A stretch of DNA of 64,000 nucleotides from Nanobdellota archaeon (GTDB taxonomy: Archaea; Nanobdellota; Nanobdellia; Parvarchaeales; Parvarchaeaceae): contig JAJZBD010000002.1 in assembly GCA_021799085.1 (NCBI GenBank), positions 37,355 to 101,354 on the forward strand, in the 5' to 3' direction. Shown here piece after piece: positions 30,051 to 57,134 of this stretch. Each line of letters begins with the position of its first letter. Within the stretch, counting starts at the first letter, position 1. The notes under the pieces are model-generated. The model was given only the letters and a program-made list of their open reading frames with translations, was not told the DNA's origin and made no database searches. The translations under genes and the position numbers were made by a program.

Positions 30051-33000
30051 ATGAAATCTACTACACCAGCTCATAAGAAGGGATACAAAGTGCACTTCAC
30101 AACGTTTTTGGTTGTGATGACTATACTGTTTATAATATTGTTCTTTTTGAGCACACTTAATGGGTTTTTAGGCTTCAACATTGCAAAATTGCTTGGGTTA
30201 AAGCCAATAACAATAACCGCTCCTAAAAACATAAGTGTTACCCCCCCACCTACAAACATTACAAATAGTACTAAAACTATTCCAGTACCGAAATACACAA
30301 TTTTTTATGAGTCTGGGCTACCATTAGATACTCTTTGGTCTGTTTCATTGCCTTCTGGCACATTGTATTCAAATATAAATTATCTAAATTACTCCTCTTT
30401 TCTCAAAAGTTTTTCATTTAGCGTTAATCAAGTCTTCTTAAACGGCTGTATTTTCTCCCCCTCCCCCGGGTCTGGAAATGTTATTGCTGGAAATTCCGTT
30501 TATATTTCTTTTTCATCGGTATGTAATACTACTTTTGTGAGATATGGTTTACCTAACAAAGTAAATTGGACAGTTCTTTATGGCAATGTTTCTAAGGATG
30601 TGGACACAAATTCAACATCTTTTATTTCTTCCAACGGCAATTTTCCTTTTTCAATCTCAGATTCACACTACGCTGGTTGTCCTTATTACCCATATCCGCA
30701 GTCTGGATACCTTAATGCCGGTTCATCAAAATACATAATTTTTTTTACAACCTGCATTTCTAAATCAAATGCAGTCACATTTTTAGAGAGCGGTTTGCCC
30801 CAGGGGTATAACTGGACCGTAAAGTATGATAATACAACAAATAGCTCAAATTCTACTCGGATAGTTTTTACTCCTACAAATTCAGCCTCTTTGATTCCAC
30901 TATTTAACGTCTCAGTAATTGATAAGAATAACTGCATATTTACTCCAAATCCGAAAAATGGAAATGCTACGGGAGGCCAAACTGTTTTAATAACTTTTAC
31001 TTCATTGTGTAATACTTCGGTAAGTGAAAAGGGTCTGCCAGTGGGTACAAAATGGAATGTGACATTTGACAATAAAACCGTTTACTCGGTTTCTTATTCC
31101 TTAAGAATAAGTACCAACTATACGTTGAGCAATCTAAGCTTAAGGCCTGTAATATTAGGAAATTGCACGTTTAATCCAATTGCAAATTCTAGTAATCCGA
31201 TAGTTGCGGGTTCTTCTGTTCTTATAGAGTTCTCTGCAAGCTGCATAACTTCCTTTTTGGAGAAGAATCTTCCTGTGGGGTTGAACTGGACTGTAAAGTA
31301 TAACAATAAAACATTGCAGTCCACGTCAAGTGTAATAAGATTCAATACTACCAATGTGTTCTCGGGTTTCTCCATTCCAAATGCAACCGAAGGCGGGTGT
31401 GTATATTCCCCTACGCCATCACGCGGGAATTTAACGGCGGGATCCTCCATTACCATATCTTTCTCTCAGACATGTCATACTGTTTTTGTTTCAAAAGGGT
31501 TACCAGCAGGAGTATCCTGGTCAGTTGATTACGACAATCAGACAAGGGACGGTGCATTTAACTCTTCGATAGAATTCCCTTACTATAAAGGAAAAACATT
31601 CTATTATAACGTGTCAATAATAAAAGTTGGAAACTGTGTATTTACTCCCTATCCCAAAAATGGAACTATACTTGCGGGAGAACTTCAACTTATAGCATTT
31701 TCTGGGGAATGCACCACAACTTTTAGTGAAACAGGACTTCCGAATAATACGGAGTGGAATGCCACTTTTGATAATAAAACAAAATTATCAATATCAACCG
31801 GAATCTTTTTCTATACAGTAAATGGTTCTTATCCTTTTTCAATTCCTTCTCAACCGATAAGTAGGGGATGTTATTATGTCCCTTCTCCATCTTCCGGTAG
31901 TATAACGGCCGGTTCGAATGAAACCATAGGATTTACGGATGATTGTACAACGGATTTTATAGACCCTGGTTTGCCGTCTGGGGCAAATTGGACCGTTACA
32001 TTTGCAGGGTTAACAAAGCATTCTATAAATCAAAATGTGTCATTTCTTCTCCCCAGAGGTAAGTACTATTACCAAGTGCCACAGACAAGTTATAATGGCT
32101 GCAACTATGCACCCAATCAAAGTTCCGGATCTACAAGCGTTGGAGAGGATGTACATGTAACATTCAATCTTACAACCTGTGACACGGTTTTTTCAGAAGT
32201 TGGTTTACCAAAAGGAACTTCGTGGCAGGCAATATTTAATGGCACTGCCTCGGATTCTCAGACAAATTCAATCTCTTTTAGCAGCTTTCCAGGAAACTAC
32301 TCATTTTCAGTTGAAAAGATAACCCTAGGAACATGCGTATTTTCACCAAATGAATCTAGTGGATTTATAAATGCAGGTTCTTCCCCGGTCATAGGCTTCA
32401 GCAGTTTATGCTATACAGATTTTTATGAAAAGGATTTACCAGCAAACAGTCTGTGGAGTGTTAATTACAACGGTAAGCCTAACTCTTCAATAGGCGACTT
32501 AATTGCTATAAAGACTAGTTATGGTACTTTTCCTTATTCAATAAGTAATGTTAGCGCAGGTGGCTCATGTTACTTTATACCCCAACCAGTTGCTGGAAAT
32601 GACACAGCTGGGACAGAGGTCACTGTAAATTATATTGAGAAATGTCTGTCAAACTTTCACGAAACTGGTTTATACAGCAATGTACACTGGTCTGTAACTT
32701 ATGATGGGGATACCGTTTCAACTTACGGAGATAACCTGTCCATACTGAATTTACCCGGAAATTATTCATATGATGTACCAACTGCCTTTGGAAGGGGCTG
32801 CACTTTTACATCTCTTAACTCCAGCGGTAATCTTGTATCGGGCAAAAATGCTAGCGTTTATTTCTCCCCAAGTTCATGCATTTCTAATATTACTGAAACT
32901 GGCCTGCCGAAAAATGTAAATTGGGGCGTTTCTATAGATAATGTAACTAATTACTCTACAGAAAAATCAATTTTAGTTACAACAAATCCTGGGAATTACT

Positions 33001-36000
33001 CTGTGTATATTCATTCTGTAAAGATAAATGGTTGTGTTTTCTCCGCAAGTTATAATAATCTAATGATGGCAGGTTCTACCATTATAGTTCATTTTAGTGC
33101 CGCATGTCAAACCATTTTTACTGAAACAGGTTTACCCAATGGTACAGAATGGAAAGTTAATGATTCTTTTCCTTCTTATTTTGATTATAATTTACCAATA
33201 CCTGGAGAGGTATACTCTTATACATTGTACTCTTCAACAACAAATAGGATAATAGTTAATTCTTCAAACTCATCAGCTAATCCGTATAAAGTAGAAAGCA
33301 TTCCTATAAATAAGTTTTGTGCATATGATCCGCAACCGTCATCGGGATCAATAACTCCTGGCGACAATCTCTCTATACTGTTTAAGAATGATTGCATAAC
33401 TAGCTTCAAGGAAATGGGTCTTCCAAGTGGGACTACCTGGTATGTATCCTTCAATAATATAAATGCTTCCTCCAATTCCAGTCAAATTTCATTTTTAACA
33501 AATGCGGGAGCATACAACTTTAAAGTATTCACAGCAGAAAATCACGGTTGTTTCTACACTTCAAATGTAACCCAAGGTACACTTAATTCCTCATCTGTTT
33601 TGAACATAAAATTTACAGGTAAGTTCTGTCTTACTATTTTTAACGAGACTGGCTTACCAAGTAATACAAAATGGAATGTAACTTTTAACAGTACATTAAA
33701 AGCATCCAATACATCAAAAATAACATTTAATGGTTCTTTCTCAAATACCTCCTATAATTATTATATACAGCCAAAAAGCATTTCAGCCCAGGGCTGTTAT
33801 ATAAATTTGACTTCACCAAGCGGAACTGTTAAAGTGGGCTCATATGTGAATGTTACATATCTAAACCGTTGCAAAACCACTTTTAATGAGACGGGCCTAC
33901 CGAATAGCACAAAGTGGAGCGTGGTTTTTGACGGGATATCAGGAAGTTCTTCAAATATTTCAGTAGTCATATACGCTCTGCCTGGAAATCATTCATATGA
34001 ACCTTCAATTATAAACATAGGGGGAGGGTGTTTTTATTATCCAAAACCAAATTCTTCATACTTAATATCTGGAGAATCTGCCACTATCTCATACACGAAA
34101 GAATGTTTGTCCACATTTTCTCAAAACGGTTTGCCTTCTGGTGCTTCATGGTCCGTTGAGTATGATAATTTTGTCAACTCTTCTAGGTTATCAGATATAA
34201 ATTTTGTTACCGCACCCGGCAATTTCTCGTTTTCTTTGAATACAGTTGATTATGCCTATTGCTCCTTTTTGCCTTCTCCGGCTTCTGGTTATCTTGTCGC
34301 AGGCGGAAATGTAAGTATATCCTTTATTGAAAATACCTGTAATACTACCTTCATAGAAACCGGCTTACCTTTTAATACGCAGTGGAAACTTACGTTTGAT
34401 GGAATAACAGAGACTCCTTCTAACAATAATGTTACAATAACTACACCCGCAGGAATTTTTACAGCTAAGTTCTATCCAATAAATTTGTCTAACTGTATAT
34501 TTTCTCCGCAGCCGCTGTCTAGCAGCACTGCGGCTGGAGGCCATTTTACCGTTCATTTTGCAGCATCTTGTACTACTACTTTTAATGAGACGGGCCTGCC
34601 GAATAATACTTACTGGTTTGTTACATATAACGGTACTACAGTTTCATCAAATAGCACTATTATAAGAGTAACTTCAATAAATGGCACTTATGCGTATAGC
34701 TTGCCGTTTATAGGCAATTCCAGTTGCTCATACCGGCCGAATCCCTCCTCTGGAAATGCAATAGCTGGTTCAAAAATAGGCATAGATTACAGCGGAGGGT
34801 GCACAACAGTATTCTATGAAAATGGGCTGCCTCCCGGCAGTGAATGGAATTTAACATATGATAATAAGAGCATAAACTCTACAAGTACCAGTATCCAGTT
34901 TGTAACCCCCCCAGGCAGTTTTAAGTACACTGTCGAAAACTTAACTTTAAATAACTGCTTATATGTTGCAAAGAATGGCTCTTCAGAACTTGCTGCAGGG
35001 TCCACATTTTATCTGGTATTTAATCAGACAAGGTGCTACACTACATTTACGGAAAGCAATCTTCCTTCAAATACAAAATGGACATTAACTTATGATGATG
35101 TAAATTATAGCTCGAATAAAACTTCATTAGCGCTGTCAACTATTCCAGGTACTTTCAATTTTACTGGGTATAGTGTAACAGAAGATGGGTGTATATTTAC
35201 TCCAAATCCAAGTAGCGGTCATATTGCTGCAGGCTCTTCTTTACTTCTTTCTTTTTCCTCTTCCTGTGTAACTTCCTTTAATGAAACCGGCCTTTCTAAG
35301 GGGATAACTTGGAGTGTTGAGTTTGACGGCATAACCAATTACTCTTCTAATACTTCTCTGTACATAGACTCAATTTATGGTAATTTCTCATTTTCAGTCC
35401 CTAGGATACAAGTATCAGCGAATTGTTACCTTACTCCTGATCCAAGCAAAGGTTACCTAATTGCAGGCTCAAGCACCGTTATTAACTTTTCCAATTATTG
35501 TTATTCCGAGTTTATAGAAACGGGATTACCTTCGGGCATTAGTTGGTCCGTAAAATACAATAATTTAACTAATTCATCTTCTTTATCAGATATAAGTTTC
35601 AATGTTGTCAGTGGGAATTATTCATTTTCCATACCATCGGTTGATTATCATAATTGTTATTTCGTTTCCAATGAATCAAGTGGATATGCAAAGGCAGGGG
35701 TTTATACCTATTTAAAGTTTACAGAAAATTATTGCATTTCTAATTTCACAGAATCCGGCTTGCCGAGTAATACAAAATGGAATGTAACATTTTCAAATAA
35801 GTCTAATGCATCTACTAAACGGTACATTTCTTTAAACACCACTAAAGGTCTGTACAATTTTACAGTGCATCCGGTAAATATAGGAGGTTGTAAATACATC
35901 TCTACTCCCGCAATCGGAAGTGTGGCCGCAGGTTCAGAGATAAATGTAAGTTTTTCGGTTTCATTTTGCATAACTACTTTTGATGAAACCGGCTTACCAT

Positions 36001-39000
36001 TAAGAGATAATTGGTCAGTTACATATGATAGTATAAGAAATTCTTCCGTTTCTAGCAATATAACCTTCAATATTTCTACTTTGTCTTCTTTTGCGTTTTC
36101 TGTAGAGGCAGAAAACCAATCTCAGTGTGATTTTAGTCCTGTTCCATCCTCAGGTAGCGTTACTTCCGGCTCTACAGAAGTGATAAATTTCAATAGCGTC
36201 TGTCATACCTACTTTAAAGAGAATGGGCTACCTTCAAGTTATACTTGGATAGTGAATTTAAACGGGAAAAATGATTCTTCTAAATCAAATATTATAGAAT
36301 TTACAACTTCCTATAATGATAATTACACCTTCAATATTTATCCATCCGTAGATTATAACTCGGGGTTCTTGTCAAATATTTCCAAAGGTTACATTGCTAC
36401 TGGGTCAAATATTACAGTTGCATTTTCAAATGATACAGCTGCTTATAAGAAACCGGTAATAATGCCTGTGTCCTTTTATAATAATCAGACAGAATCCACT
36501 CCTCAACCCTCTCAACAGATGCTTATTTTCAATTCCTCAAAATATTCTAAATATGAAAACTCCAAATTAACAAATATAATGTTTGCATATCAGAATGGAA
36601 CAGCTATTCCTTCTTGGTTAGAATCCGGCAATTCAAATACGTCAAATGACACTGTATACTGGCTAAAAATTAAAAGCATCCCAGCGGAAAGTGGTATAAC
36701 TATCAACATGGTATTCAATCAAACCTTCCTTTCTTATTCTAATAATTTTTACACCGGTACAGCAGGAGAGGCTCCACAGCTTTCCTCAACATACGGTGAG
36801 TACAACAATATAGCCAATGTGATGAATTCAGGTTTATTGTACCAGTTTTACCAGTTAAATGGAGGAGGTATACAGTCACAGGCAAGTGTTTACCAAGCAC
36901 AGTTAACACCAAATTCGGTTTTCTCCTATGGTAGTTTGACAGCGACAGCAGGATCAACATTGTATTTATCTGCATTAACAGGCAGTTCTCAGGATGTTGA
37001 TGGAACAACAGAGCCAAACGTGATAATTAATTATCAGTACAGTTATTCCGGAGGGAGTGCATTTCCAAATCCGCCTATAACCAATCCGCAGTATGTAATA
37101 ATGAAGGCAATAGGCTTTGCAGTAGTCAACTCCCCAACAACAATATATGGATTAAGTGATGATGGCATGGGAATTGGTTATTCTAATTCCGGCGGGGCAT
37201 TAATTCCTTGGCTTGGAGGGTCTTCTACTTCAAACAATCCAAATAACGTAATCAATTCTTGGGTATCGGAATCTGCTACTCAACATAGCGGCACTATAAC
37301 TACAGACGGCAGTTACAGGCTAGAAATAGACTATACAAATCAAGGAGGACCAGGGGAGGATGCGGTCTGGTCAAATAATTCAATAGATTACTATTCTCCC
37401 TCACAGCCTCCAAATGGTGTAATGCCATACAGTATTTCAAATGCAACATTTATAACTACCTATTTCAAGGAAACGGGATTACCTTTAGATTATAATTGGA
37501 ATGTAAACTATGATACTATATCTAAATCTTCATCAATGTCCGAGATAAACTTTACTACTGAAAGAGGAAATTACTCTTATTCCGTGCCAGTTCTTCGTAA
37601 TTCTTCTTCAAGTTTGGATTGTACTACAGCTTATACTCCAAAGCCTAGCTCTGGCTATTTAATAGCAGGAGAGAATATTACTATTTCATATTCTAACAGC
37701 ACTTATTGTATAACTAAGTTCTATGAAAACGGTTTGCCTGCAAATTCAATATTTTATGTAAATTACGATGGGATAAACAAAAGTATTTCTTTATTTGGGG
37801 ATGGACTTTTGTTATCTATCCAGAATACCCAGTCTGTTCCTACTCCAGCGCCATTCCAGCAGATGGTAAACTTTTCGTATTCAGGCTACAAGCAGTACAT
37901 AAATCTAAGCAGCGGTCACCAGTTCCAGAACGTAGAGTTCATAAACACTACAACTGGAAAGGTAATAGACAGTTGGCTTGAAAGCTACACTTCCAGCTAT
38001 GCCATCTTCTGGATAAAGTTGCCAAATGGAATACCTGCAGACACTACTATAAAGGATGTAGCTATGCTGTTTGTGAATAATGACACTAATTTATTTAACA
38101 CTAATACCACTGGCGAGGCTCCTCAGCTTTCTCCAACGTATGCAGAATACGACAATGGTGCAAACGTATTTATAAAATACTGGAATTTTAAGGGGAGTTC
38201 GGCGCCAGCAGGATTTGCTACATCTGTAGATAATGGTGGCAGTGTTTCTTACAATAATGGGTTATACTTAACTCTTCCTAACAATAACAATGGTGCAACT
38301 GCAGCAAGTGTTTATGTTCAAACAGATCTAAGTAATCCTTTCTTCGCCTTTACTGGTACTGGAGCGGGAGCTTATGCATATAGAACTAATATAGGAATAT
38401 CTGAAAGCAGCAGTAACTCAATAGAAGGTACTTGTGCGATAATGTATTATCCTTCATATTCATATATACCTGGGGGAGAATGCATATCTAATGGTTTATA
38501 CTCAATAACCAGTTCAGGTTATTCACAAATTAATAGTTTGTCTTATTCTTCTGGTCCATTAATAGGTGTTGGTTTCAATTCAAATACGGTACTTCTAGTT
38601 AATAATGGATTTAATTTGTATACTGATAGTTCAATCCCTTTTAGTTCTACTAATTATGTGTGGTTAGGAACCTCCGCATATTATTCAAAAACGTCAGGTT
38701 CGAATGTTCTTAATTATTTAGCATTATCAGCTTATCCTCCAAACGGGATTATGCCAAGTGTAACGTCTGTTCTTAAGACATCTGGGATTAATACTTCTAA
38801 TGGCATATTCTTAGCTAAGCCCTCCTCCAATGTTGACTGTTCAAATAGTGATATTAATCTTACGGCAGGCAGTACATACACTTTCACAAATTGGAATTGT
38901 ACTACTGAATTCAATGCAACGAATATTAATCAAAATGTTACGTTCTCTTTAGATTATAATGGTTTGAATAAGTCCGGCACTACTGGAAAACCCATAAATA

Positions 39001-42000
39001 TAAATTTCCTATCCTCGGGTAATGGCAATTATCTTTATAACGCAAAGATAAGCAATCAATGCAGTGCAAGCGGTTATGCATATGTGGGGGAGAGTTCAAA
39101 CATAAGTAATTGGAACTGCTCTTATCTATTTTATGAGAAAAATTTACCTACAGGAACGAAGTGGTATGTCAGTTTTAACGGGTTTAACGAAAGTTCTACT
39201 AATAATAAGATAGCGTTCTTTGATTCTCCAGGTAATTATTCTTATAAAATAAATGAAATACCTATAAAAGCAAACAACGGTTTGTCCTGTGTAAATACCT
39301 TTTATCCCTCCCCTTCTTCAGGGTATATATCTACTTTGAAAAATAATATAACTATAACCTTTTCAAACAATACGCAATGTACTACTTCCTTTTTACAATT
39401 TGGATTACCTAATAATAATTGGAAAGTATTTTATAATAATAATGGATATAACTACACTTCAAAGTATTCTCTGATAAATATAAGCATTGACAACGCTCAA
39501 TCTACCTCAACTCCAGCGCCATTCCAGCAGATGGTAAACTTTTCGTATTCAGGCTACAAGCAGTACATAAATCTAAGCAGCGGTCACCAGTTCCAGAACG
39601 TAGAGTTCATAAACACTACAACTGGAAAGGTAATAGACAGTTGGCTTGAAAGCTACACTTCCAGCTATGCCATCTTCTGGATAAAGTTGCCAAATGGAAT
39701 ACCTGCAGACACTACTATAAAGGATGTAGCTATGCTGTTTGTGAATAATGACACTAATTTATTTAACACTAATACCACTGGCGAGGCTCCTCAGCTTTCT
39801 CCAACTTATGCGGAGTATGATGATGGTGCAAATGTGTTTAATTATTATGAGAACTTCGCAGGTTCAGGATTGCCAGCGGGCTGGCAGGAGCTTACCTCCT
39901 CTGGAGATACATACACTTGGGACAATGGAATCACTTTTACAAATAATGGCCATAGTGATTATGTTTCGATAGGAACAACGTCTGCTGTCGCTTCTGCAGG
40001 TATTTTAGAATTAGGGGTGGCAAGTGGCTCCAATGCTAGGCCGACAATAGAATTAGCAACTACAGATATCCAAATAGAGGGTGGTCAACCAATATATGAA
40101 TACAAAGAGGGTTATGGTCAATCCTATGGTATGTATTCAGGCGATATGCAACTAGAAACATTGACTACTTCATCTACGTCTACAGACAATGCTAAGACAG
40201 CTTATAATGCTCCACTAATTGAAGGAATTAGCTGGACAACAACAGGTTCAGAACTCCTGGAGATAATACCAAACTATGTTTATAATGACGCGGAGATAGC
40301 ATCCGAAGCAAGTACTTCTGTGTCATTGTCCACCCCTTTATATGTTATGTTGGGCCAAGCTGCGTCTGGTTCTAGTTCAGATACTGGGGGCTTCACAGCA
40401 AATTGGCTTCGCGTTCGTGCCTATCCTCCAAACGGAGTAATGCCAACCGTAAAAATAAATAAGTCAACAGTAACTGACTTGAATTTTAATTTTCTAACCT
40501 CCCCAGGAAGCTTTACAGCGAATGCCAATACTTCTTTAGATTGCAGACCAGAAGAGGATACAGTAAAAGCAGGGACGACTTACTTCTTTTCAAATTGGAA
40601 TTGTACTACTACATTTAATGAAAGCGCATTGCCAAAAGGTAATACTTGGTGGGTTGATTACGATGGAGTAAACGATAGTAATAAAACTGGAAATGTTATA
40701 AGAGTAAACTTTAACTCTTCCAATTTTGGAATTTATACTTATTCCGTAGGTTCAAATATAAGTTGTTATTCTAAAGGCGTTGGAGATTTAGGGACATATA
40801 ATAATATCTCAAATTGGTTATGTAATAAGCGATTTACAGAGGAAGGGCTTCCAAGTGGAACTAACTGGAGTGTTGACTATGATAATAAGTTAAGCTATTC
40901 GACTTCCGGTGTAATATCTTTTTCCAATAATTTTGGAAATTACAGTTATAACATAAGCAATTTAACTTTATCTAATGGAATTTATGTGCCAAATTCCTCT
41001 TCAGGGCATACAATCTCATTTGGTAACTTAATTATAAATTTCTCAAAACACGGCCTAGTTACTCCTCAAAGTATTTACAAATACGCAGTGTTGAATATCA
41101 CCAACTCTCAAACTTCTGCTACTAAGCAGCCATTCCAACAGATGATTAATTTAACGATAAACTCATTAAACAGCAAATACATAAACCAGACTGGCAAATA
41201 TTCCTTCCAAAACGTTGAGTTCTTTAACACTACAACTGGCAAGGTAATAGATTCATGGCTTGAGAACTACACTTCAAAGTACGCCATATTCTGGATCAAA
41301 TTACCAAACGGCATACCTGCAAATACCACTATACAAGACGTGGCAATAGGCTTTGCATCAAATGATACAAATCTGTTCAATATCAATAGTACTGGCGAAG
41401 CACCTCAGCTATCCGATACTTATGCAGAATACGATGATGGTGTTAATATATTTAATTTTTACGATAATTTTGCGGGAACTAGTTTAAATACTACAAAGTG
41501 GAGTAGCTTTGGTAGTTCAGGAACAAGTGGTTCTACCTCAGACATTATAGTGAGTAATAAATTAACTTTAACAGGCGGCGGAACAGGGGGGCTTTCTCAT
41601 CAAACTTGGATTAAAACCTCTTTAAGTTCTGGAAGTTTTGATGGGTCTGTAGTTGCAGATGTTTATGAAAATAGCCCCTCAACTGATACAACGTTTAGAT
41701 GGGGATTTACAAATTCAAATCCAACTTACTTTGGAGGTTCATCTACACAATCTTTTGGCGAACAGATATATGATAATGGAAATTGGTATGCAAATACAGA
41801 TGCTGGCTCATCAGGAACGCAAAATGAAATAGGTTCTTGGAGTTCTTTAGCAAACACTTCCGTTATATGGAGTATAGCTGCTACGGACACGCAAATTTTA
41901 TTTTATAATCCAAATACCTATTCAACATTAGGAAGTTCAGGACAAACCATAACAACTACTATTCCAGCATATTCCTCATCAATTGGTTTATCTTTAACTA

Positions 42001-47491: not shown

Positions 47492-48697
47492 CTACTCCAA
47501 GCTTACGCATGGAGCTTCTCGCTTCAACGAACTGACTTGCTTCAGTTTATGAAGTAGAGGTCTATTCTCCACTAGCATACTGGCAGGTTCCCTACCAAAT
47601 AACGCTTTTATGATTATATTTCTTGCTGCGTTTATATCTCTGTCTATTTCTATTTTACAATATGGACATTTGAATATCTTTACCGATAAATCCAAATGCT
47701 CTATGTTTTTCTCCTCGCAGACACTACAAGTTTGTGTAGTGTCTTTTGGATTTACTTTTACTAAAATCCTGCCAGCACTTTCAGCCTTGTAGGATAAATA
47801 TGAAATAAACAAGCTCCAGGCAGCATCATATATACTTTTAGATAGATGGTGATTTCTGGCCATACCTTGGATATTTAGGTTTTCAACTGCGATAAAACCA
47901 TAGTTTTTCACGTATTCTGTGGATAATTTGTGTGCAAAATCCTTCCTTTGGTTCTGTAGGTGCTCATAAGCTTTGTTTAGTCTTAGCTTTATTTTGTTCC
48001 TTCTGTTGGATCCTTTCTTTTTCCTTGCCAATTGCCTTTGAATCAAAGCTATCTTATCTGCCGTCTTCTGCAGAAATCTAGGATTTTCCACAAACCTGTA
48101 ATTGCTGTCAGCAAGGAAATGCGTTACTCCCACGTCTATACCAACTGCTTTTTCAGAGGTATTTGGCTTAACTTTTATCTGATTCTTTTCTTGATGCGGA
48201 TTTTCAACTTGGATGCAGGCATACCACTTGCCTGCCCTCTTGCTTATTATTATTCCCTTGACATTGCCTTTTATTTCCCTGTGAAACTCCGCTTCTACTT
48301 TTCCTACTTTTGAAAGGATTATTTTCTTGTTTCCTATGATAAAACCGCTTTGATTGTAGAATATTGATTTGAAATGGTCATAACTTTTGAACCTTAGCTT
48401 TCCTATTTTGTAGCCTTTCCTCTTTCTTCCTGCTAATGTATGGATGTTGTTCCATAATTGCTGATTTACCATCTGCAATGTCTTTGAGTAGACGTTTTTC
48501 AATTCAGGCTTGTCTTCTTTCAGCTTTACTAAAAGCTTTTGGGTGTCATATCTCTTTAGCTTTTTCCCTTCGTCTTTTGCCTTGTTCAGTTCCTCTAATA
48601 ATTTGTTGTAAGTCCATTGGCATAATTCCAATTGTATATTCAGTTCCGTTTCTACGACTTTGCTTGGATACAACCTAAATTTTTTATAACTCCTCAT
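47492..48697 (-). CDS. tnpB: TnpB (IS605 OrfB family RNA-guided nuclease ancestor of Cas12)
   Basis: 401 aa with an N-terminal helical domain, a central RuvC-like region and a C-terminal zinc finger (CSVCEEKN ... CPYCKIEIDRDINAARNI). Confidence 0.85.
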   Translation of the reverse strand: MRSYKKFRLYPSKVVETELNIQLELCQWTYNKLLEELNKAKDEGKKLKRYDTQKLLVKLKEDKPELKNVYSKTLQMVNQQLWNNIHTLAGRKRKGYKIGKLRFKSYDHFKSIFYNQSGFIIGNKKIILSKVGKVEAEFHREIKGNVKGIIISKRAGKWYACIQVENPHQEKNQIKVKPNTSEKAVGIDVGVTHFLADSNYRFVENPRFLQKTADKIALIQRQLARKKKGSNRRNKIKLRLNKAYEHLQNQRKDFAHKLSTEYVKNYGFIAVENLNIQGMARNHHLSKSIYDAAWSLFISYLSYKAESAGRILVKVNPKDTTQTCSVCEEKNIEHLDLSVKIFKCPYCKIEIDRDINAARNIIIKALFGREPASMLVENRPLLHKLKQVSSLKREAPCVSLE

Positions 48698-48762
48698 ATT
48701 TTATCTACTCTTTTTATGTTTTATACTTTTACCGTCTTTCATCCCCTATCTCACAAAAGGGG
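47492..48762 (-). mobile_element. IS605/IS1341-type element carrying solo tnpB (no tnpA)
   Basis: The TnpB ORF plus a candidate left-end subterminal hairpin CCCCT-N10-AGGGG at 48743-48762, upstream of the tnpB start. No tnpA was found nearby. Confidence 0.55.
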
Positions 48763-48825
48763 AATTCTCGGCGGACTTGTTAAAAAAAGAAATGCTTTTA
48801 TAAGATTAGTCTTCTTTTAAAGAGC

Positions 48826-49344
48826 ATGTTTAGGAAAAATACAAATAACGTGTTTAAAGGGCTTGATAAAGTAAGAAAGAATCTGGATTTAATTTTAGAT
48901 AATTTGAAAAATGAAGATCCAGAAAATATTTTGAAATTTCCATATAATGATCTATCGGATTACTTCAAGAATATAAAAATTGATCTTGTGAGAAAAAGAA
49001 AGGAAAGTTCAATGTTTCCAGGGAAATCAGGCGATTATATAATAAAGAGTGGAAGCACTTATGACTATGACAGCAGTTTTATGAATGACAGCATTCCTTT
49101 GTTTTATATGTCAGGGATATACAGAACAAGAAGTAATGAAAATGAAGAAAGAGAGTACTTCGGCATAAAATTGAATGGAAAGATTGTGCCTACTGCGTAT
49201 ATAAAACATTTGTATTCAGGTAATTACAAAGTATACTTGAATTATGACATTATTAAGGATCTAGATAACGAATCATTTAAAAAAATTATAGCAGCGACTA
49301 GCATTAGGTTATCTGATTACAGAAGTGTTTCTCATTTCAGTTAA
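48826..49344 (+). CDS. Hypothetical protein (island ORF 1)
   Basis: 172 aa, no motif; first of five same-strand, tightly spaced ORFs. Confidence 0.4.
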   Translation: MFRKNTNNVFKGLDKVRKNLDLILDNLKNEDPENILKFPYNDLSDYFKNIKIDLVRKRKESSMFPGKSGDYIIKSGSTYDYDSSFMNDSIPLFYMSGIYRTRSNENEEREYFGIKLNGKIVPTAYIKHLYSGNYKVYLNYDIIKDLDNESFKKIIAATSIRLSDYRSVSHFS

Positions 49345-49418
49345 ATGTTAATGACAGTTAATTATTTATAATATAACTTGTATATAGTTTACAATTAAAA
49401 AGTGATTAAAATAACCAT

Positions 49419-50327
49419 ATGACTAAGAAATACTCAGATATTGAAAAATTACTGAAATCATTGCCGTATAAAAACGATGCAGACGGCAACCCTACTTTAA
49501 AAAAGGAATTTGTAAGGAACTCAAATTACTTCAGTGATTTTGGCTTAGTAGTGAATGAAAGATACATAGCAGATACCTTTCCAAACGTAAAAAGCAGAGA
49601 ATACCTGCAGTTTAATAATCTATATAACACTGGCTTTTTTGACGATTATTTTGCAAGACAGTACAAATTGTTAAATGACCTTTATGCAGCAAAACCAGAA
49701 AACTTTTCAAAACCAGTTGCATTGATTGTAGATGATTCAGCCAAAAGAGTAGGTTACATAACTATGCCTTTTGAGGGTAATGAAAAAAGAAACTACATAC
49801 CAAAGGCGGTTTCTTTGCAAGACTATCTAAGCAATTACGGAAGCTGGGATGAAAAATTGATAGCTGAGAAAATAAGTAGAGTAACTTCTCTTCAGGATCT
49901 GATCCCAAGGGATGAACTTAATAATTTTATACTTAAGAAGGGTATTAAACGGCTTTCATATGGTGAAAGGTACCTTAAGGAATACGCTGCAAGAATAGAC
50001 GTTTACAAGGATAGAATGGAAGAACTTAAGGAAATAAAGAAGCAGATAAATGATACTGTAAAATACATAAATCAGAATGGCTTATCACACAATAATCTCT
50101 ACCTTGAAAATATAATCATTTACTGGGATGAGGATAAGAAAGCAAAGGTGGGGTTTTTAAATCCAATCAATAAACAGGACGTTAAATCACATTTCTTTGC
50201 ATCCGATGAGCACAGGGTCAAATCGATAAATCGTAGCATAAAATGGGCAGAATTTAAACAGAACATACTAATTAACAAGTATACTGAAAAATACAAATCG
50301 CTTTATCCCGGATTCAGGATAAGATAA
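49419..50327 (+). CDS. Hypothetical protein with degenerate protein-kinase-like catalytic loop (island ORF 2)
   Basis: GLSHNNLYLENIII resembles the HxDLxxxNIL catalytic loop with Asp replaced by Asn. A following VGFLNP sits where the DFG/IDFE motif would be. Confidence 0.4.
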   Translation: MTKKYSDIEKLLKSLPYKNDADGNPTLKKEFVRNSNYFSDFGLVVNERYIADTFPNVKSREYLQFNNLYNTGFFDDYFARQYKLLNDLYAAKPENFSKPVALIVDDSAKRVGYITMPFEGNEKRNYIPKAVSLQDYLSNYGSWDEKLIAEKISRVTSLQDLIPRDELNNFILKKGIKRLSYGERYLKEYAARIDVYKDRMEELKEIKKQINDTVKYINQNGLSHNNLYLENIIIYWDEDKKAKVGFLNPINKQDVKSHFFASDEHRVKSINRSIKWAEFKQNILINKYTEKYKSLYPGFRIR

Positions 50328-50333
50328 CCATAT

Positions 50334-51059
50334 ATGAAGGTTTTATTCCCTAAAAGAGAACCCAAGTGTATTGAAACCTATGAAGGTATAAATGAAGGTT
50401 CTAATCTGTATAAATTGCTGCTTGATACAGGACCAATAATAACAGAAGCATTACTCAACTTTTATGCAAAAAGAGGAGATAAAAGCTTATACAAAAATGT
50501 AATAAACAAGAAAAATCTCCCCTATTTTTCCAGCTATGTAAACCATTTCAATTCTCTTGAAAAGAAATTGATCGTTACTGTAAGCGACAGCTATAGAGAA
50601 CTTCAGGAAATGAAGGGCTATGAGCTGGAAGCAGTATACAGTGTATTGGATTCCAGTAATGATATCTGCGCAAGCAATGTGTGGGGAGAAAAGTATGCTA
50701 GTATCATAAAAACAAGGAACAAAATATTGAAAGATGAAGTAGATCTTTCAAGCAGATTGCCAAAGCTTGATTACACTCATTCTGTAAATATAAATTATGC
50801 GCATCTTTTTTCGTATGATTTCAAAAAGGACATGGATCCCAGGAAGGCAAAGGCCTTGCTTTACAAGAAGACTTTAAAAATTGGACAGGACCCAAAGGTG
50901 TACACTGATTTTAATCTTTTCTCTTTAAAGGACAAAGCAAGCATTGCAATAGCATTTTACGGCAGGGCCATAGAGTTTACTGACTTCATGGATATGTTCA
51001 ATTCGATTAATTATTCCGTTAATAAAGGAGAGGGCAGTAACGTAAAACCTATATTATAA
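50334..51059 (+). CDS. Hypothetical protein (island ORF 3)
   Basis: 241 aa, lies 6 bp after ORF 2; no motif. Confidence 0.4.
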   Translation: MKVLFPKREPKCIETYEGINEGSNLYKLLLDTGPIITEALLNFYAKRGDKSLYKNVINKKNLPYFSSYVNHFNSLEKKLIVTVSDSYRELQEMKGYELEAVYSVLDSSNDICASNVWGEKYASIIKTRNKILKDEVDLSSRLPKLDYTHSVNINYAHLFSYDFKKDMDPRKAKALLYKKTLKIGQDPKVYTDFNLFSLKDKASIAIAFYGRAIEFTDFMDMFNSINYSVNKGEGSNVKPIL

Positions 51060-51108
51060 AGAAAATAAAGAAAAAGTATTAATAACATTGTTTATCTAAT
51101 AGAACGCT

Positions 51109-51504
51109 ATGCAAAACAAAAAGACAGATATAGAGCAGGGAATTAACAGCAAATATAGGCATGCTTTAGAGGAGCTTTGTAATATTTCTACTGAGGAAAT
51201 ATCAAAGAAGGTATTCGGCATACAATATTCTAAGATTTTAGATGAGCTTTCGTATATTATTGAAAACGGTTATAAAAGCGTATTGGATTATTCTTATATT
51301 TTAAACACTGAAGAAATGAAGGACGTTACCAAAGATTATATGCGCTCTATTTTCGAAAAAGGCCTTAAAAAAGTCGAATACAGCAATTTTAATATAGATT
51401 TCAACGATAAAAGACAAGTTAAAACCGGAATATACGGTTATACCGTAGCTCATGTGTACAAAATTCTTTTTAAGCAGAACAATGGTAAAAAATCAAGAGA
51501 ATGA
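51109..51504 (+). CDS. Hypothetical protein (island ORF 4; may be the 5' part of a frameshifted gene)
   Basis: 131 aa. It ends just after an A6 run and the downstream ORF continues in the +1 frame. Confidence 0.35.
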   Translation: MQNKKTDIEQGINSKYRHALEELCNISTEEISKKVFGIQYSKILDELSYIIENGYKSVLDYSYILNTEEMKDVTKDYMRSIFEKGLKKVEYSNFNIDFNDKRQVKTGIYGYTVAHVYKILFKQNNGKKSRE

Positions 51505-51778
51505 ACGATTGGAAGAGCTGCTCTTTGATTGCAGTTTAACGTTGTTTGGAAAGCCGAATTTGGATGTTTTTTCAAGGGCTAACGATCTCAAAAGTCATTT
51601 AGAGACAGATTCATTGGTTTACTCTTCAAGCTATGAGGTTTTTAATCCAGAAACTGTTGCGATTGACCTTCATTTTTACACCATATCAAACAAATACGAA
51701 TTAAAAAACAAGCTTATCAACCTTTCAAATCAGTATTCTTTTGGCTTATCTTATAAGATACACGAACTTAAGCAGTAA
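51452..51778 (+). CDS. Hypothetical protein (island ORF 5; may be the 3' part of a frameshifted gene)
   Basis: 108-aa ORF overlapping ORF 4 by 53 nt in the +1 frame. Confidence 0.3.
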   Translation: MCTKFFLSRTMVKNQENERLEELLFDCSLTLFGKPNLDVFSRANDLKSHLETDSLVYSSSYEVFNPETVAIDLHFYTISNKYELKNKLINLSNQYSFGLSYKIHELKQ

Positions 51779-51790
51779 AACACAAAGAGA

Positions 51791-52411
51791 TTACTGCTTT
51801 TTGTAAACATCCTGGAATTTTACAAATCTTTCATTCAGTTTTTTCCAGTCCAAATTATTGAAGAATGGCTCTAGGTATTTTGCTTTGTCTGGCCCATAAT
51901 CAACATAAAATGCGTGTTCATAAACATCTAAAGCTATTATGGGTATTGAACCCCACACTGCTCCGTCGTTATGTACGTCTGCTAAAAATGTTCTAAGTTT
52001 ATTGTCAGTAGGGTCTATTGCAAGTATAGCCCACCCTCTGGCTGCCTTCGCAGTCGCCATCATATCGAGCTTAAAATTTTCAAAGCTTCCGAAGTCCTCA
52101 TTTATCTTTTTTATAAGTGGCATATCCTCCGAATACTTGCCGTCTCCTCCGAACATTTCGAAATAAAGTTCATGAAGCAGCTGTCCGCTTGCATTGAATG
52201 TTTCTTCTTTCTTTAACGATCTAAACTCGCTGTAATTTGCATTTGCGGCGGCTTTATCAACTGTTTTAAGCTTGTTGTGTACTTCATTTCTTTTCTTTAC
52301 ATAGCCTGCGTAGTGCACATCATGGTGGAAACTTATTTGTTTCTCAGAAAACCCTTCTAAAGATTTATAATTTAGTTTTTGTACTTCATACTGATCATCG
52401 TAGTTTGCCAT
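51791..52411 (-). CDS. sod: Fe/Mn superoxide dismutase
   Basis: HHDVHYAGYV and the DVYEHAFYVDYGP/WEHAYY-type C-terminal signature. Confidence 0.9.
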   Translation of the reverse strand: MANYDDQYEVQKLNYKSLEGFSEKQISFHHDVHYAGYVKKRNEVHNKLKTVDKAAANANYSEFRSLKKEETFNASGQLLHELYFEMFGGDGKYSEDMPLIKKINEDFGSFENFKLDMMATAKAARGWAILAIDPTDNKLRTFLADVHNDGAVWGSIPIIALDVYEHAFYVDYGPDKAKYLEPFFNNLDWKKLNERFVKFQDVYKKQ

Positions 52412-52526
52412 AAAATCACCGATAATTATAACACAGTTATAGTATATAAAATTTTTTATGTTGTAATAGAAAAGTATTTAAATATAAAATCTATCTTTAA
52501 TAGATATCGCAAAACGATATTAAGAG

Positions 52527-53054
52527 GTGAAAAATATGAAAAATAAAGAAGATGACTTTAATGAAATAAACTTCGGATTCAATATAGACCCGAATATGGT
52601 ACATAAACTTGCACACTCAATGCATGGGATAACTCGTGGATTTGGAATAAAGTACTGGATACTTATGTTAGTCTCAAAGGAAAAAATGACTGGTGCACAG
52701 ATGATAGACAAGATATACGAAATGAGCTTCGGTTTCTGGAGGCCTTCTCCGGGAAGTATATACTCTATATTAAAATATCTGTCAGAAAGCGGTTTTGTGA
52801 AAGTAGAACAGAATGACAACAAAAAATACTACTCGATTACTGATAAAGGGAAGGAGTATCTAGACAGTTCCTGGTTCCCATGGAGATCTGCTTCTTCATT
52901 TATGAACAAGGACGAGGGAACGAGCATAGATGAGACCATAGAGACTTTAGATAATCTATCTGAGTTTATATCAGAAAAGGAAAAGCTTCTCAGCAAGGAA
53001 AACAAGAAAACATTAAAAAAGATAGATGATAGGCTGCATAGTTTGCTGAAGTAA
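52527..53054 (+). CDS. PadR-family transcriptional regulator
   Basis: Winged helix region GAQMIDKIYEMSFGFWRPSPGSIYSILKYLSESGFV and a coiled-coil C-terminus. Confidence 0.7.
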   Translation: MKNMKNKEDDFNEINFGFNIDPNMVHKLAHSMHGITRGFGIKYWILMLVSKEKMTGAQMIDKIYEMSFGFWRPSPGSIYSILKYLSESGFVKVEQNDNKKYYSITDKGKEYLDSSWFPWRSASSFMNKDEGTSIDETIETLDNLSEFISEKEKLLSKENKKTLKKIDDRLHSLLK

Positions 53055-53060
53055 ACTAAA

Positions 53061-53840
53061 ATGGAATACTCCATAGTTGCGGATAAATTGACAAAGAAAT
53101 TCGGGGATTTTACCGCAGATAATGCAATAAGCTTGAAGGTAAAAGATGGTGAAATATTCGGTATTTTAGGCCCAAATGGAGCAGGAAAAACCACTTTGAT
53201 AAGCATGCTTACCACTTTGATAAAGCCGACAAGCGGACATGCATATGTACTTGGACATGACGTAATGAAAGACGCATTGGAAGTTAGGAAGTCTATAGGA
53301 GTCATAACAGAAAAAGTAACTATGTATCCGCCGCTTACTGCAGAGGAGAACTTAATGTTTTTTGGAAGATTATACGGAATAAACAAGAAGGATCTTGAAC
53401 AGAGGATAAACAAGGGTTTAGAAGAGTTCCAGCTGTCTAAATTCAGAAAAAGACCCGTAGGCACCTTTTCTTTGGGTATGAAAAGGAGATTGGATTTAGT
53501 TAGAGTGCTGTTAAATGAACCCAAGGTATTCTTTTTGGATGAACCTACGGTTGGTTTAGATCCAATAACAGTTTCGTTCATAAAGAAAAAAATAAGGGAC
53601 ATAAACAAGAAAGGAAGCACAATAATACTTACAACACATATAATGCAGGATGCTGACGAGCTTTCCGACAGGGTTGCATTGATAGATCACGGAAATTTAA
53701 TGGTCTGTGATACTCCTAGAAATTTAAAGAAAAAATTGGGCAAAAATGCAACCTTAGAGGATGTTTTCATACACTACGCAGGTGCTGAATTGAGAGATGA
53801 GACTGAAAAGATGAGCCTAGCTCCAAGGAGAGGCATGTGA
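53061..53840 (+). CDS. ABC transporter ATP-binding protein
   Basis: Walker A GPNGAGKTT, signature FSLGMKRRL and Walker B VFFLDEPTVGLD. Confidence 0.85.
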   Translation: MEYSIVADKLTKKFGDFTADNAISLKVKDGEIFGILGPNGAGKTTLISMLTTLIKPTSGHAYVLGHDVMKDALEVRKSIGVITEKVTMYPPLTAEENLMFFGRLYGINKKDLEQRINKGLEEFQLSKFRKRPVGTFSLGMKRRLDLVRVLLNEPKVFFLDEPTVGLDPITVSFIKKKIRDINKKGSTIILTTHIMQDADELSDRVALIDHGNLMVCDTPRNLKKKLGKNATLEDVFIHYAGAELRDETEKMSLAPRRGM

Positions 53841-55975: not shown

Positions 55976-56377
55976 ATGATAAACGCTGAAATAAAAGAAT
56001 ATTCTCCAGGAAAGTGCAATATAGGGCCCAAGGAAATCCGGAAAAGGTACCTGGCAGGGTTTTTAGGATTCATTGTTGCTGCAATACTTTTTGTCTTTCT
56101 TTCATTTTTTAGGGTAGGTTACTTACTCTTTATAATATTGATATTCCCCCTGTTTTTGGGGTTTATAGGTTTTTATCAGGGATACAAAAAGTTTTGTGTT
56201 GCAAATGCCATCGCAGGCATTTATGTATTTTCTGATACTAAAAAAGGCTCAATAAAGGACAAGAAATCACACAGAATTGACTTAAAGAAAGCGCTCACCT
56301 TAATAACATACTCATTTATATCTGCCGCAATGCTTACAATGGTTATAACCTTAATTGTGTATTACCTGGTGATTTGA
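55976..56377 (+). CDS. Small membrane protein, module C first gene
   Basis: 133 aa with 3 TM helices and a 4-bp overlap with the next ORF. N-terminal YSPGKCNIGPKEIRKRY. Confidence 0.4.
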   Translation: MINAEIKEYSPGKCNIGPKEIRKRYLAGFLGFIVAAILFVFLSFFRVGYLLFIILIFPLFLGFIGFYQGYKKFCVANAIAGIYVFSDTKKGSIKDKKSHRIDLKKALTLITYSFISAAMLTMVITLIVYYLVI

Positions 56378-56742
56378 TGTTATATATTAAAACAACGGAA
56401 GAAATAATTTTTGGGTTACTTAGCATACTTGGGGTTTTTGCAGTTTACTACAGTCTAATAATATCGAGAGCGTTGATAAAACATAAAAAAGACAGAGCAC
56501 CTCTGCTAAGCTATCTTCTAAACCCGGAGAGGATAAGAACTCCCTATTTTGTATTTGCTGGTTTATTTGCATTCCTTACTGGTTTAATGGCTTTTTTGGA
56601 CTTCATTGATGGCGGGTTTAATCCAACAACAGCTTTGCAGTATTCTACATTCTTTTTTGGGTTTATTTTTGCAATAGTTACTGCGGTATTTATTATACTG
56701 GACATGCATTTTTGGTACACGAGGTTTAAAAGATTCATATGA
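56374..56742 (+). CDS. Small integral membrane protein, family member C2 (paralog of 45593 and 46815 ORFs)
   Basis: IKHKKDRAPLLSYLLNP, a C-terminal WYTRFKRFI and the same topology as A1 and B1. Confidence 0.5.
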   Translation: MMLYIKTTEEIIFGLLSILGVFAVYYSLIISRALIKHKKDRAPLLSYLLNPERIRTPYFVFAGLFAFLTGLMAFLDFIDGGFNPTTALQYSTFFFGFIFAIVTAVFIILDMHFWYTRFKRFI

Positions 56743-57134
56743 TAGAGAATGGAATTCTTGGCATAGTCGGAATTTTAACTGGTACAGTGATACTGATATC
56801 AACTTTAGGTTTTATTTATTTTATGCGTTCTGCATATAGGTATGGTTCCAGAGATGAAGCGAACAAATTTTTTGGTAGTTATATGTTCAATAACCCCAAA
56901 AGATACATAATAGCATTTTTGTTTTTAGTGTTAGCGGGCATGTCCTTGTCAATAGGGTTCATATTTGCATTTATAGCTAGCTTTTTTATGAGTCCATTGG
57001 TCATATGGGAACTTCTTAGCTCCGTTTCCCTTATTGCGCTTGCGGGTTTTTTCGTAACATTTACAAGCATAGATCATCCAAAATCTTTTCTAAACTATAT
57101 AGCATTTCTAAAGGCAAAAAATAAAAAGAAGTAG
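56739..57134 (+). CDS. Small integral membrane protein, partner C3
   Basis: 131-aa hydrophobic protein with a 4-bp overlap with C2. Confidence 0.45.
   Translation: MIENGILGIVGILTGTVILISTLGFIYFMRSAYRYGSRDEANKFFGSYMFNNPKRYIIAFLFLVLAGMSLSIGFIFAFIASFFMSPLVIWELLSSVSLIALAGFFVTFTSIDHPKSFLNYIAFLKAKNKKK

Follow-up and report, generated by a model that had tools for sequence, protein, structure and literature searches.

What are five genes of no recognizable function doing, tightly packed on one strand, between a TnpB insertion sequence (IS) and the superoxide dismutase gene sod of an archaeal chromosome? The question is raised by a stretch of 64,000 nucleotides (nt) from a Nanobdellota archaeon (contig JAJZBD010000002.1, positions 37,355 to 101,354), referred to below as the window, in which open reading frames (ORFs) 1 to 5 form such a group at positions 48826 to 51778. 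A first-pass annotation had proposed that the group is a horizontally acquired island, that is, a defense or toxin-antitoxin system or cargo delivered by the IS. Comparison with related genomes leads us to a different reading, which we regard as rather likely: the five genes are a vertically inherited cluster, specific to the Parvarchaeota and built on a predicted pseudokinase, ORF2, and the IS beside them is recent and unrelated. The genes are as follows (aa, amino acids).

48826-49344, plus strand: ORF1, 172 aa
49419-50327, plus strand: ORF2, 302 aa
50334-51059, plus strand: ORF3, 241 aa, starting 6 nt past ORF2
51109-51504, plus strand: ORF4, 131 aa
51482-51778, plus strand: ORF5, 98 aa from a conserved ATG, acidic
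51452-51778, plus strand: longer reading of ORF5, 108 aa, from an upstream start that is not conserved

All five ORFs lie on the plus strand with the lengths and spacers originally described for them (74, 6, 49, and -53 bp from ORF1 to ORF5, in the 108-aa reading of ORF5). The earlier failure to recognize a housekeeping signature or an assignable defense family was confirmed, and the five genes are uncharacterized: none of the proteins gave a result at threshold in Pfam, NCBIfam, PADLOC, or PHROGs, and a literature search found no paper on them. For ORF1, ORF3, ORF4, and ORF5, neither single-sequence nor member-by-member family scans gave a significant or consistent Pfam match, and profile searches of PDB sequences gave no match. 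When the five families were compared all against all with hhalign, every pair scored below 4%, i.e., the families are mutually unrelated. Ratios of nonsynonymous to synonymous substitution rates (dN/dS) were 0.08 to 0.21 against three relatives. The 19-residue hydropathy maximum was at most 0.91 in all five proteins, versus 2.4 to 2.5 in neighboring membrane proteins; because they contain no hydrophobic or transmembrane segments, the five are predicted to be soluble and cytoplasmic. ORF1 to ORF4 are basic (isoelectric points of 8.8 to 9.3), and ORF5 is acidic (5.3).

The cluster has a fixed position in Parvarchaeota genomes

Genomic contexts were gathered through ORF2 homologs, a scan of one genome per species, Sod proteins identical to those of ARMAN-5 and ARMAN-4, and a metagenome scan with sod. 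All genes of the window were mapped onto the retrieved loci, which make up about a dozen locus types. By exact sequence matches, all the proteins belong to metagenome-assembled genomes of Candidatus Parvarchaeota/Parvarchaeum (the ARMAN-4/-5 lineage of the DPANN archaea), and homologs of ORF2 (57 to 95% identity) are found in that lineage only. Every Parvarchaeum locus has the gene order HhH glycosylase-AhpC-m121-m101-AdoMetDC-m115-m106-(ORF1 to ORF5)-sod-PadR-ABC transporter-HAD. The cluster sits between m115/m106 and sod in nine species-level genomes, and it has the same position in ARMAN-5-like and ARMAN-4-like loci, which were reached by sod alone, and in one metagenome contig. Some 77 unrelated sod loci from the metagenome scan served as negative controls, and none of them carried ORF1 to ORF5. 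The right neighbor in the window and the gene contents of the loci are as follows.

51791-52411, minus strand: sod, Fe/Mn superoxide dismutase, followed by a PadR regulator gene and an ABC transporter
Window, L007 (same species as L001-L003), L009, L011, L012, L013, and L015: complete, ORF1-2-3-4-5
L008, whose sequence begins within the cluster: ORF2-5
L023: ORF1-2-3-5
L019 (ARMAN-5-like): ORF1, an inserted 470-aa protein, ORF2-4-5
L004/L010: a 38-aa ORF1 remnant, ORF2, ORF5
L014/L021 (ARMAN-4-like): ORF1, ORF2, inverted ORF4

ORF2 is the sole cluster gene present in every locus. Orthologs of ORF1 lie directly upstream of it in at least eight locus types, including the distant metagenome-assembled genome L016 (sod 80% and ORF2 26% identical), where an ORF1 homolog (E = 4.5e-10) directly precedes the ORF2 homolog (E = 3e-38) and an ORF5-like gene (E = 4e-4) adjoins sod. 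ORF2 is universal, ORF1 and ORF2 form an ancient core, and ORF3 to ORF5 have been lost repeatedly. The ORF1 remnant in L010 indicates that the variation in gene content arose by loss in situ. The expectation that homologs co-localize as a cassette in other archaeal genomes was thus correct for all Parvarchaeum loci; the companion expectation, that close relatives lack the cassette, failed, since the same site is occupied in all related loci and the IS alone is absent. Of the accessory character ascribed to the genes, one half stands, as ORF3, ORF4, ORF5, and, in one species, ORF1 are dispensable; the other half, horizontal acquisition, does not.

Substitution rates agree with this history. The dN/dS values given above show that ORF1 to ORF5 are real genes under purifying selection, with ORF2 the most constrained of the five (0.08 to 0.09). 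Against L007, synonymous divergence (dS) was 0.16 to 0.47 for ORF1 to ORF5 and 0.17 to 1.44 for the flanks; because dS matches that of the flanks, the five genes have diverged together with the chromosome. Their dN is 2 to 10 times that of sod, AdoMetDC, or AhpC. ORF1 to ORF5 are fast-evolving, lineage-specific genes and not recent imports. The cluster is chromosomal and vertically inherited, and the stretch that contains it, with small membrane-protein genes on one side and sod on the other, is prone to rearrangement.

The insertion sequence arrived after the genes

The adjacency of the cluster to an IS605-family TnpB, which underlay the island proposal, is real. The element comprises the following.

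47487-48779, minus strand: TnpB-only IS200/IS605-type insertion sequence, 1293 bp, both junctions aligned with L007
47492-48697, minus strand: tnpB, 401 aa (Pfam OrfB_IS605, 2e-25; Cas12f1-like_TNB, 4e-22; HTH_OrfB_IS605, 5e-6)

The IS, present in one copy in the window, lies between the m106 stop codon and ORF1, 16 to 17 bp upstream of the conserved TATA-like box of ORF1. In L007 the site is uninterrupted, with ...GATTAATTTTGGT running directly into TTAAAAAGAAAGG..., and comparison of the IS junctions with this empty site revealed no obvious target duplication. A tblastn search with TnpB gave no match in any related locus. Because TnpB is absent from all relatives and the site is empty in L007, the IS is a late, single, strain-specific insertion, and ORF1 to ORF5 are not its cargo; the genes and the IS are adjacent but unconnected, the IS having come second. 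Delivery of the five genes by the IS was rejected on the basis of the empty-site alignment.

With OrfB_IS605 and zinc-ribbon domains, no obvious target duplication, and structured ends, the element belongs to the IS200/IS605 family. The hairpins near its two ends are small and statistically weak (z = -1.3 and -2.3). It is nonautonomous, since TnpA is absent. It shares with TnpB-only IS200/IS605 elements (IS1341-like) a full-length TnpB, the lack of TnpA, and terminal hairpins; ORF1 to ORF5 lie beside it and not within it. At its 3' end, tnpB reaches to within 5 nt of the IS end, and the segment at 47487 to 47580 (minus strand), which folds modestly better than shuffled sequences (z = -2.3), is the expected place of a TnpB guide (omega/reRNA) scaffold; no Rfam family matched it. 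An Rfam scan of 46500 to 52600 found no RNA family except one chance-level snoRNA match.

Composition and the question of a mobile or viral origin

The region of ORF1 to ORF5 has a GC content of 31.9%, versus 36.4 ± 1.7% in same-size windows (lowest 0.3% of the 64 kb), so the earlier impression that it is more AT-rich than its flanks was accurate. The GC content at third codon positions (GC3) is 0.29 to 0.37 in the five genes and 0.29 to 0.42 in the flanking housekeeping genes. Because GC3 is ordinary, the low GC content reflects proteins rich in Lys, Asn, Tyr, and Ile together with AT-rich spacers rather than foreign codon usage. Nor did other checks point to a foreign source. At E ≤ 1, PADLOC-DB gave 0 families for all five proteins; there is no tRNA within 35 kb of the cluster and no integrase, att-like repeat, or boundary repeat flanking it; and 2.9 million viral contigs held no relatives of ORF2 or ORF3.

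An acquired accessory system (defense, toxin-antitoxin, or IS cargo) that came with or next to TnpB would fit the lowest GC content of the window, the tight packing of unknown proteins beside an IS, the gene content that varies between species, the elevated dN relative to housekeeping flanks, and the plasticity of the surroundings, where the presence of a giant gene, a pair of ABC transporter genes, and a 470-aa surface protein differs between genomes. We consider such an origin very improbable nonetheless. All relatives have the genes at this position, and their dS is no different from that of the flanks; the IS is absent elsewhere and its empty site has been seen, GC3 is ordinary, and the searches for PADLOC or PHROG matches, viral-contig relatives of ORF2 and ORF3, integrases, tRNAs, and boundary repeats came back empty. 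The varying gene content is explained by loss in situ, as the ORF1 remnant in L010 illustrates, and ORF2 is without the residues that a HipA-type toxin would need. Defense islands and toxin-antitoxin cassettes such as HipA/HipBST are likewise tight clusters of small unknown genes that include a kinase-like one, vary in content, and evolve fast; unlike them, ORF1 to ORF5 have no PADLOC match and are neither mobile nor patchy, and the kinase-like ORF2 is without the catalytic residues that a kinase toxin requires.

An older event, the integration of a virus or plasmid in the common ancestor of the Parvarchaeota followed by domestication of its remnant, would account for ORFan families confined to a single lineage that are AT-rich, fast evolving, cytoplasmic, and located in a variable region. 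We judge this origin improbable, as the cluster has no mobile-element hallmark genes and no PHROG matches, ORF2 and ORF3 have no viral-contig relatives, and purifying selection and a stable position extend across at least two genera. Moreover, hypothetical genes confined to one lineage are in general plentiful among DPANN archaea, which further reduces the appeal of this origin.

A 22-nt direct repeat (47452-47473, at the 3' end of m106, and 51682-51703, within ORF5; 20 of 22 positions identical) was considered as a possible att boundary and rejected, since its right-hand copy is part of the ORF5 coding sequence and each copy specifies a conserved peptide motif. A repeat this good did not arise in any of 40 Markov-1 simulations. 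The peptide specified by the two copies is IS(K/N)KYEL, and other species have KYKL in m106; the repeat is probably a coincidence or the product of convergence.

ORF2 is a predicted pseudokinase

The first-pass annotation had noted in ORF2 a kinase-like catalytic loop in which the catalytic Asp is replaced by Asn, and this observation was upheld. In single-sequence Pfam scans, ORF2 gave subthreshold matches to Kdo/WaaP, Pkinase, and DUF6382 around residues 186 to 259, and Kdo, PK_Tyr_Ser-Thr, Pkinase, and DUF6382 appeared below threshold in up to 7 of 13 ORF2 orthologs. A profile search of 1.84 billion representatives matched 10 proteins (hmmsearch E = 2e-12 to 8e-4), namely, Parvarchaeota orthologs or fragments, the distant protein P0044, a protein of 2846 aa in which Pfam clearly recognizes four Pkinase domains (1e-57), and four small kinase-like proteins whose matches to the Pfam kinase clan are weak and mostly subthreshold.

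Alignment of the ORF2 family with five kinase-like sequences by hhalign gave a probability of 97.9% (E = 3.7e-13) over 102 columns in two collinear blocks. The first (residues 80 to 126; RQYKLL...KPVALIVDD..VGY..F.G) corresponds to alphaC-beta4-beta5, and the second (residues 204 to 254) spans alphaE, the catalytic loop, and the strand equivalent to DFG. The blocks are separated by some 70 inserted residues, mostly helical in the structural model, that lie between the hinge and alphaE. In an AlphaFold2 (AF2) model of ORF2, which is of moderate quality, strands and helices follow one another in an order compatible with a kinase. When PDB sequences were searched with the ORF2 profile, the matches to the kinase catalytic loop were weak and nonsignificant, the best being a chain of GCN2 (in which the aligned loop reads HRN) and chains of JAK2; the JAK2 chains presumably represent the JH2 pseudokinase domain. 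Membership of ORF2 in the protein-kinase-like superfamily is supported by sequence profiles.

The degenerate catalytic core, read from the sequence and aligned to the HGD...N and IDP motifs of the kinase-like proteins P0046, P0048, and P0049, is located as follows.

50088-50180, plus strand: degenerate catalytic core of ORF2

In this core, the loop H224-N-N226-L-Y-L-E-N231 is the equivalent of HRDxxxxN, and G-F-L-N248-P-I-N251-K-Q-D254 is the equivalent of DFG/IDP; each has Asn in place of Asp. H224, N226, N231, N251, and D254 are the same in all 13 orthologs, N248 is nearly invariant, and the distant P0044 also carries HNN and VNP. The alphaC Glu of the kinase-like relatives aligns to the invariant Q81, so that this Glu is probably replaced by Gln as well. 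A candidate for beta3 is V44-V-N-E-R48, in which R48 is invariant; the model of the N-lobe is unreliable. The polar residues of an N-terminal motif (FNNLYNTGFFD.YF.RQY) are very strongly conserved.

A pseudokinase is defined as lacking any one of the beta3 Lys, the HRD Asp, and the DFG Asp (PMC12599244). ORF2 has N226 in place of the catalytic-base Asp of HRD and N248 in place of the metal-binding Asp of DFG, and because two of the three defining residues are replaced, we classify it as a predicted pseudokinase. In ActPs2, a bacterial pseudokinase family, the HRD Asp is likewise replaced by Asn (PMC12599244). ORF2 resembles prokaryotic pseudokinases (ActPs2 and EssB/YukC; PMC12599244) in aligning with kinase-like proteins, in keeping the His and Asn of the loop while having Asn for both the HRD Asp and the DFG Asp, in being cytoplasmic by prediction, and in having a gene that lies beside unannotated genes. 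It differs from them in falling below every Pfam kinase threshold, in its insert of about 70 residues, and in its restriction to the Parvarchaeota. Seven bacterial pseudokinase families have been described, and ORF2 was assigned to none of them, no direct comparison against them having been made.

The nearest detectable relatives outside the ORF2 family are small atypical kinases (Kdo/WaaP, RIO, and Bud32 groups; P0046, P0048, and P0049). They share with ORF2 the alphaC-beta4-beta5 block (KP[VI]xL[IV]xD...GY) and the catalytic-loop block; P0046, P0048, and P0049 retain Asp in both motifs (HGD and IDP), whereas ORF2 has HNN and [LI]NP. A KEOPS-like reading of the locus as Bud32/Cgi121/Pcc1, prompted by the gene sizes, was set aside without a formal test; the catalytic residues of ORF2 are gone, it carries a large insert, and no match was obtained for any would-be partner family.

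Could ORF2 nevertheless be an active, atypical nucleotide-dependent transferase (a kinase, AMPylase, or similar enzyme) that uses migrated residues such as D254, N231, R48/E47, or D75? Polar residues flanking the degenerate core and within the N-terminal motif are very strongly conserved, which would suit an enzyme, as would a dN/dS that is the lowest of the five genes, and there are precedents in "pseudokinases" with other chemistry, such as SelO and SidJ (PMC12599244). Nearly every ortholog, however, has amides in place of two, and probably three, of the canonical acidic residues, and with a poorly predicted N-lobe no alternative catalytic constellation was modeled. We therefore rate an active enzyme as unlikely, though deserving of some weight, and retain the assignment of ORF2 as a predicted pseudokinase.

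ORF4 and ORF5 are separate genes

ORF4 and ORF5 had been described as one gene split by a frameshift at an A6 homopolymer. This proved incorrect. The ORF5 start codon (ATG at 51482) is invariant in eight aligned sequences and matches the NCBI annotation; for the upstream ATG at 51452, there is no counterpart in L009, L010, or L012. The stop codon of ORF4 lies 20 nt past the ORF5 ATG, which creates a 23-nt overlap. This overlap has the same length in L007, L009, L012, L013, and the ARMAN-5-like L019, with proteins down to 35 to 47% identical, and it is retained in seven species-level loci besides the window. The A6 run itself (51488-51493) occurs in the window and in L007 only, and other species have GGTACAAAAT, GGCACAAAAC, or similar sequences. 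The length (121 to 131 aa) and stop position of ORF4 are conserved, with dN/dS in the range quoted above (0.08 to 0.21). Each gene also occurs without the other: ORF5 is found alone in L004/L010, 4 to 7 nt after ORF2, and ORF4 is found alone, and inverted, in L014/L021. No fused ORF4-ORF5 ortholog was found among the relatives, all of which keep two ORFs where both genes are present. Because the overlap is conserved without A6, the start ATG is invariant, and each gene stands alone in some genomes, ORF4 and ORF5 are separate genes.

In the window, deletion of one A from the A6 run would join the two frames, as expected if ORF4 and ORF5 were a frameshifted pseudogene or a single gene read by programmed +1 slippage on the A run. 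It is hard to credit either version, given that most species have ACAAAA in place of the run yet keep the ATG, the 23-nt overlap, and the stop codon of ORF4, that either gene can be found alone, that both are under purifying selection, and that a fused homolog was not found. The conserved 23-nt overlap of two separate genes suggests translational coupling instead. The ORF4 ortholog of L015 (2887-3205) is split over two frames, by a true frameshift or an assembly error, and is the sole disrupted ORF4.

Candidate promoters suggest three transcription units

In archaeal promoters, the TATA box lies about 26 nt ahead of the point where transcription starts, and leaderless mRNAs are frequent. Three conserved TATA-like boxes were found.

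48796-48803, plus strand: TATA-like box TTTTATAA, centered 26 nt before the ORF1 ATG; putative promoter, leaderless mRNA
49362-49371, plus strand: TTATTTATA(A/T) box, about 50 nt before ORF2; putative second promoter
51076-51085, plus strand: GTATTAATAA box, about 28 nt ahead of the ORF4 start codon; putative third promoter, leaderless mRNA

Upstream of ORF1, the motif GCTTTTATA..ATTA...TTCTTT.AAA..GCATG is essentially invariant in six species. In the box before ORF2, the T-A-T-T-T-A-T-A columns are invariant in six species within an otherwise variable spacer, and in the box before ORF4, the TATT.ATA columns are invariant in seven. The three conserved boxes suggest three transcription units, ORF1, ORF2-ORF3, and ORF4-ORF5, i.e., a cluster rather than a single operon.

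A possible role for the cluster

ORF2 most likely serves as a non-phosphorylating scaffold or switch that binds nucleotide or protein. Its likeliest partner would be ORF1, because this gene pair is kept across genera; the ORF1 family is soluble, basic, and confined to the Parvarchaeota (dN/dS, 0.11 to 0.15). ORF4 and ORF5, if their translation is coupled, may be made in equal amounts for an equimolar complex and probably bind each other. ORF3, ORF4, and ORF5 would then be dispensable accessories that modulate or extend the ORF1-ORF2 core. ORF3 is a soluble family specific to the genus Parvarchaeum (dN/dS, 0.13 to 0.15), present in the window, L007, L008, L009, L011, L012, L013, L015, and L023 and absent from L010, L014/L021, L019, and L016; an AF2 model from a 10-sequence alignment had a predicted local distance difference test (pLDDT) score of 40 and was unusable.

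In L019, the ORF1 and ORF2 orthologs are separated by a gene (9422-10834, minus strand) for a 470-aa protein that is rich in Asn, Ser, and Thr and has a hydrophobic anchor at its N terminus. The ORF1-ORF2 spacer thus tolerates insertions.

Several observations weigh against a vertically inherited cluster built on a pseudokinase. The AF2 model of ORF2 is of moderate quality (pLDDT, 63.5), good in the C-lobe and below 50 in the N-lobe. Foldseek searches of the PDB and BFVD returned top lists made up mostly of protein kinases, none of them significant (E ≥ 0.017; TM score of about 0.2). SelO and SidJ do without canonical residues yet catalyze reactions (PMC12599244). The ORF1-ORF2 and ORF4-ORF5 partnerships have gene order as their sole basis. 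Finally, most loci were retrieved by means of ORF2 itself, and three were reached independently via sod.

On present evidence, the locus is an ordinary uncharacterized, lineage-specific cluster. Clusters of this kind abound in DPANN genomes. What is new is a predicted, previously undescribed family of archaeal pseudokinases, restricted to the Parvarchaeota and accompanied by a conserved gene partner. Its members carry acid-to-amide swaps in the HRD and DFG motifs, with a probable third one at the alphaC Glu. Beside it stand four further families that have no detectable relatives elsewhere and are kept under purifying selection. ARMAN-type genomes measure about 1 Mb, and genes retained in so small a genome are likely to be useful. 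Should the five proteins assemble into a complex, it could be relevant to how the cells of ARMAN-type archaea work or depend on a host. More speculatively, and as a long shot, the ORF1-ORF2 core with an exchangeable ORF3 and ORF4-ORF5 pair could be a pseudokinase module, found in Parvarchaeota alone, whose fast evolution and gene turnover stem from an arms race, either against viruses or against the host archaeon. It would then be a new DPANN sensing or immunity system composed wholly of families without known relatives. The locus also shows how an IS beside ORFan genes can mimic a mobile island.

Plastic surroundings of the cluster

The region around the cluster varies between genomes in other respects. 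A giant ORF of 4512 aa (window 30051-43589, plus strand) has internal repeats and three DUF2341 matches near its C terminus (Pfam, 1e-20). The closest relative has a 4540-aa ortholog, L011 and L013 have parts of it only, and ARMAN-4-like loci have a 440- to 485-aa relative only. L004, L009, and L010 lack it, and in these loci DCD comes immediately after the Exo_endo_phos gene. As a guess, the giant ORF may be a variable surface or adhesion protein of an episymbiont.

Tandem pairs of small (101- to 133-aa) hydrophobic proteins are encoded at 45593-46260, 46815-47479, and 55976-57134 of the window. The m121 and m115 genes are paralogs, and another copy resembling m121 lies after the HAD gene. 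A match of m115 to T4SS_pilin is weak (E = 0.005) and below threshold. ARMAN-4-like loci lack the m115/m106 pair.

A second ABC transporter pair (322-aa ATPase and 255-aa permease) lies between PadR and the 259-aa ATPase in L001/L007 (L001 11630-13362), L008, and L014. It is lacking at the corresponding junction of the window (53054-53061), and remnants of it persist in L004 (a 70-aa ORF) and L011 (a 50-aa match). The patchy occurrence of this pair points to recurrent deletion in the same plastic stretch.

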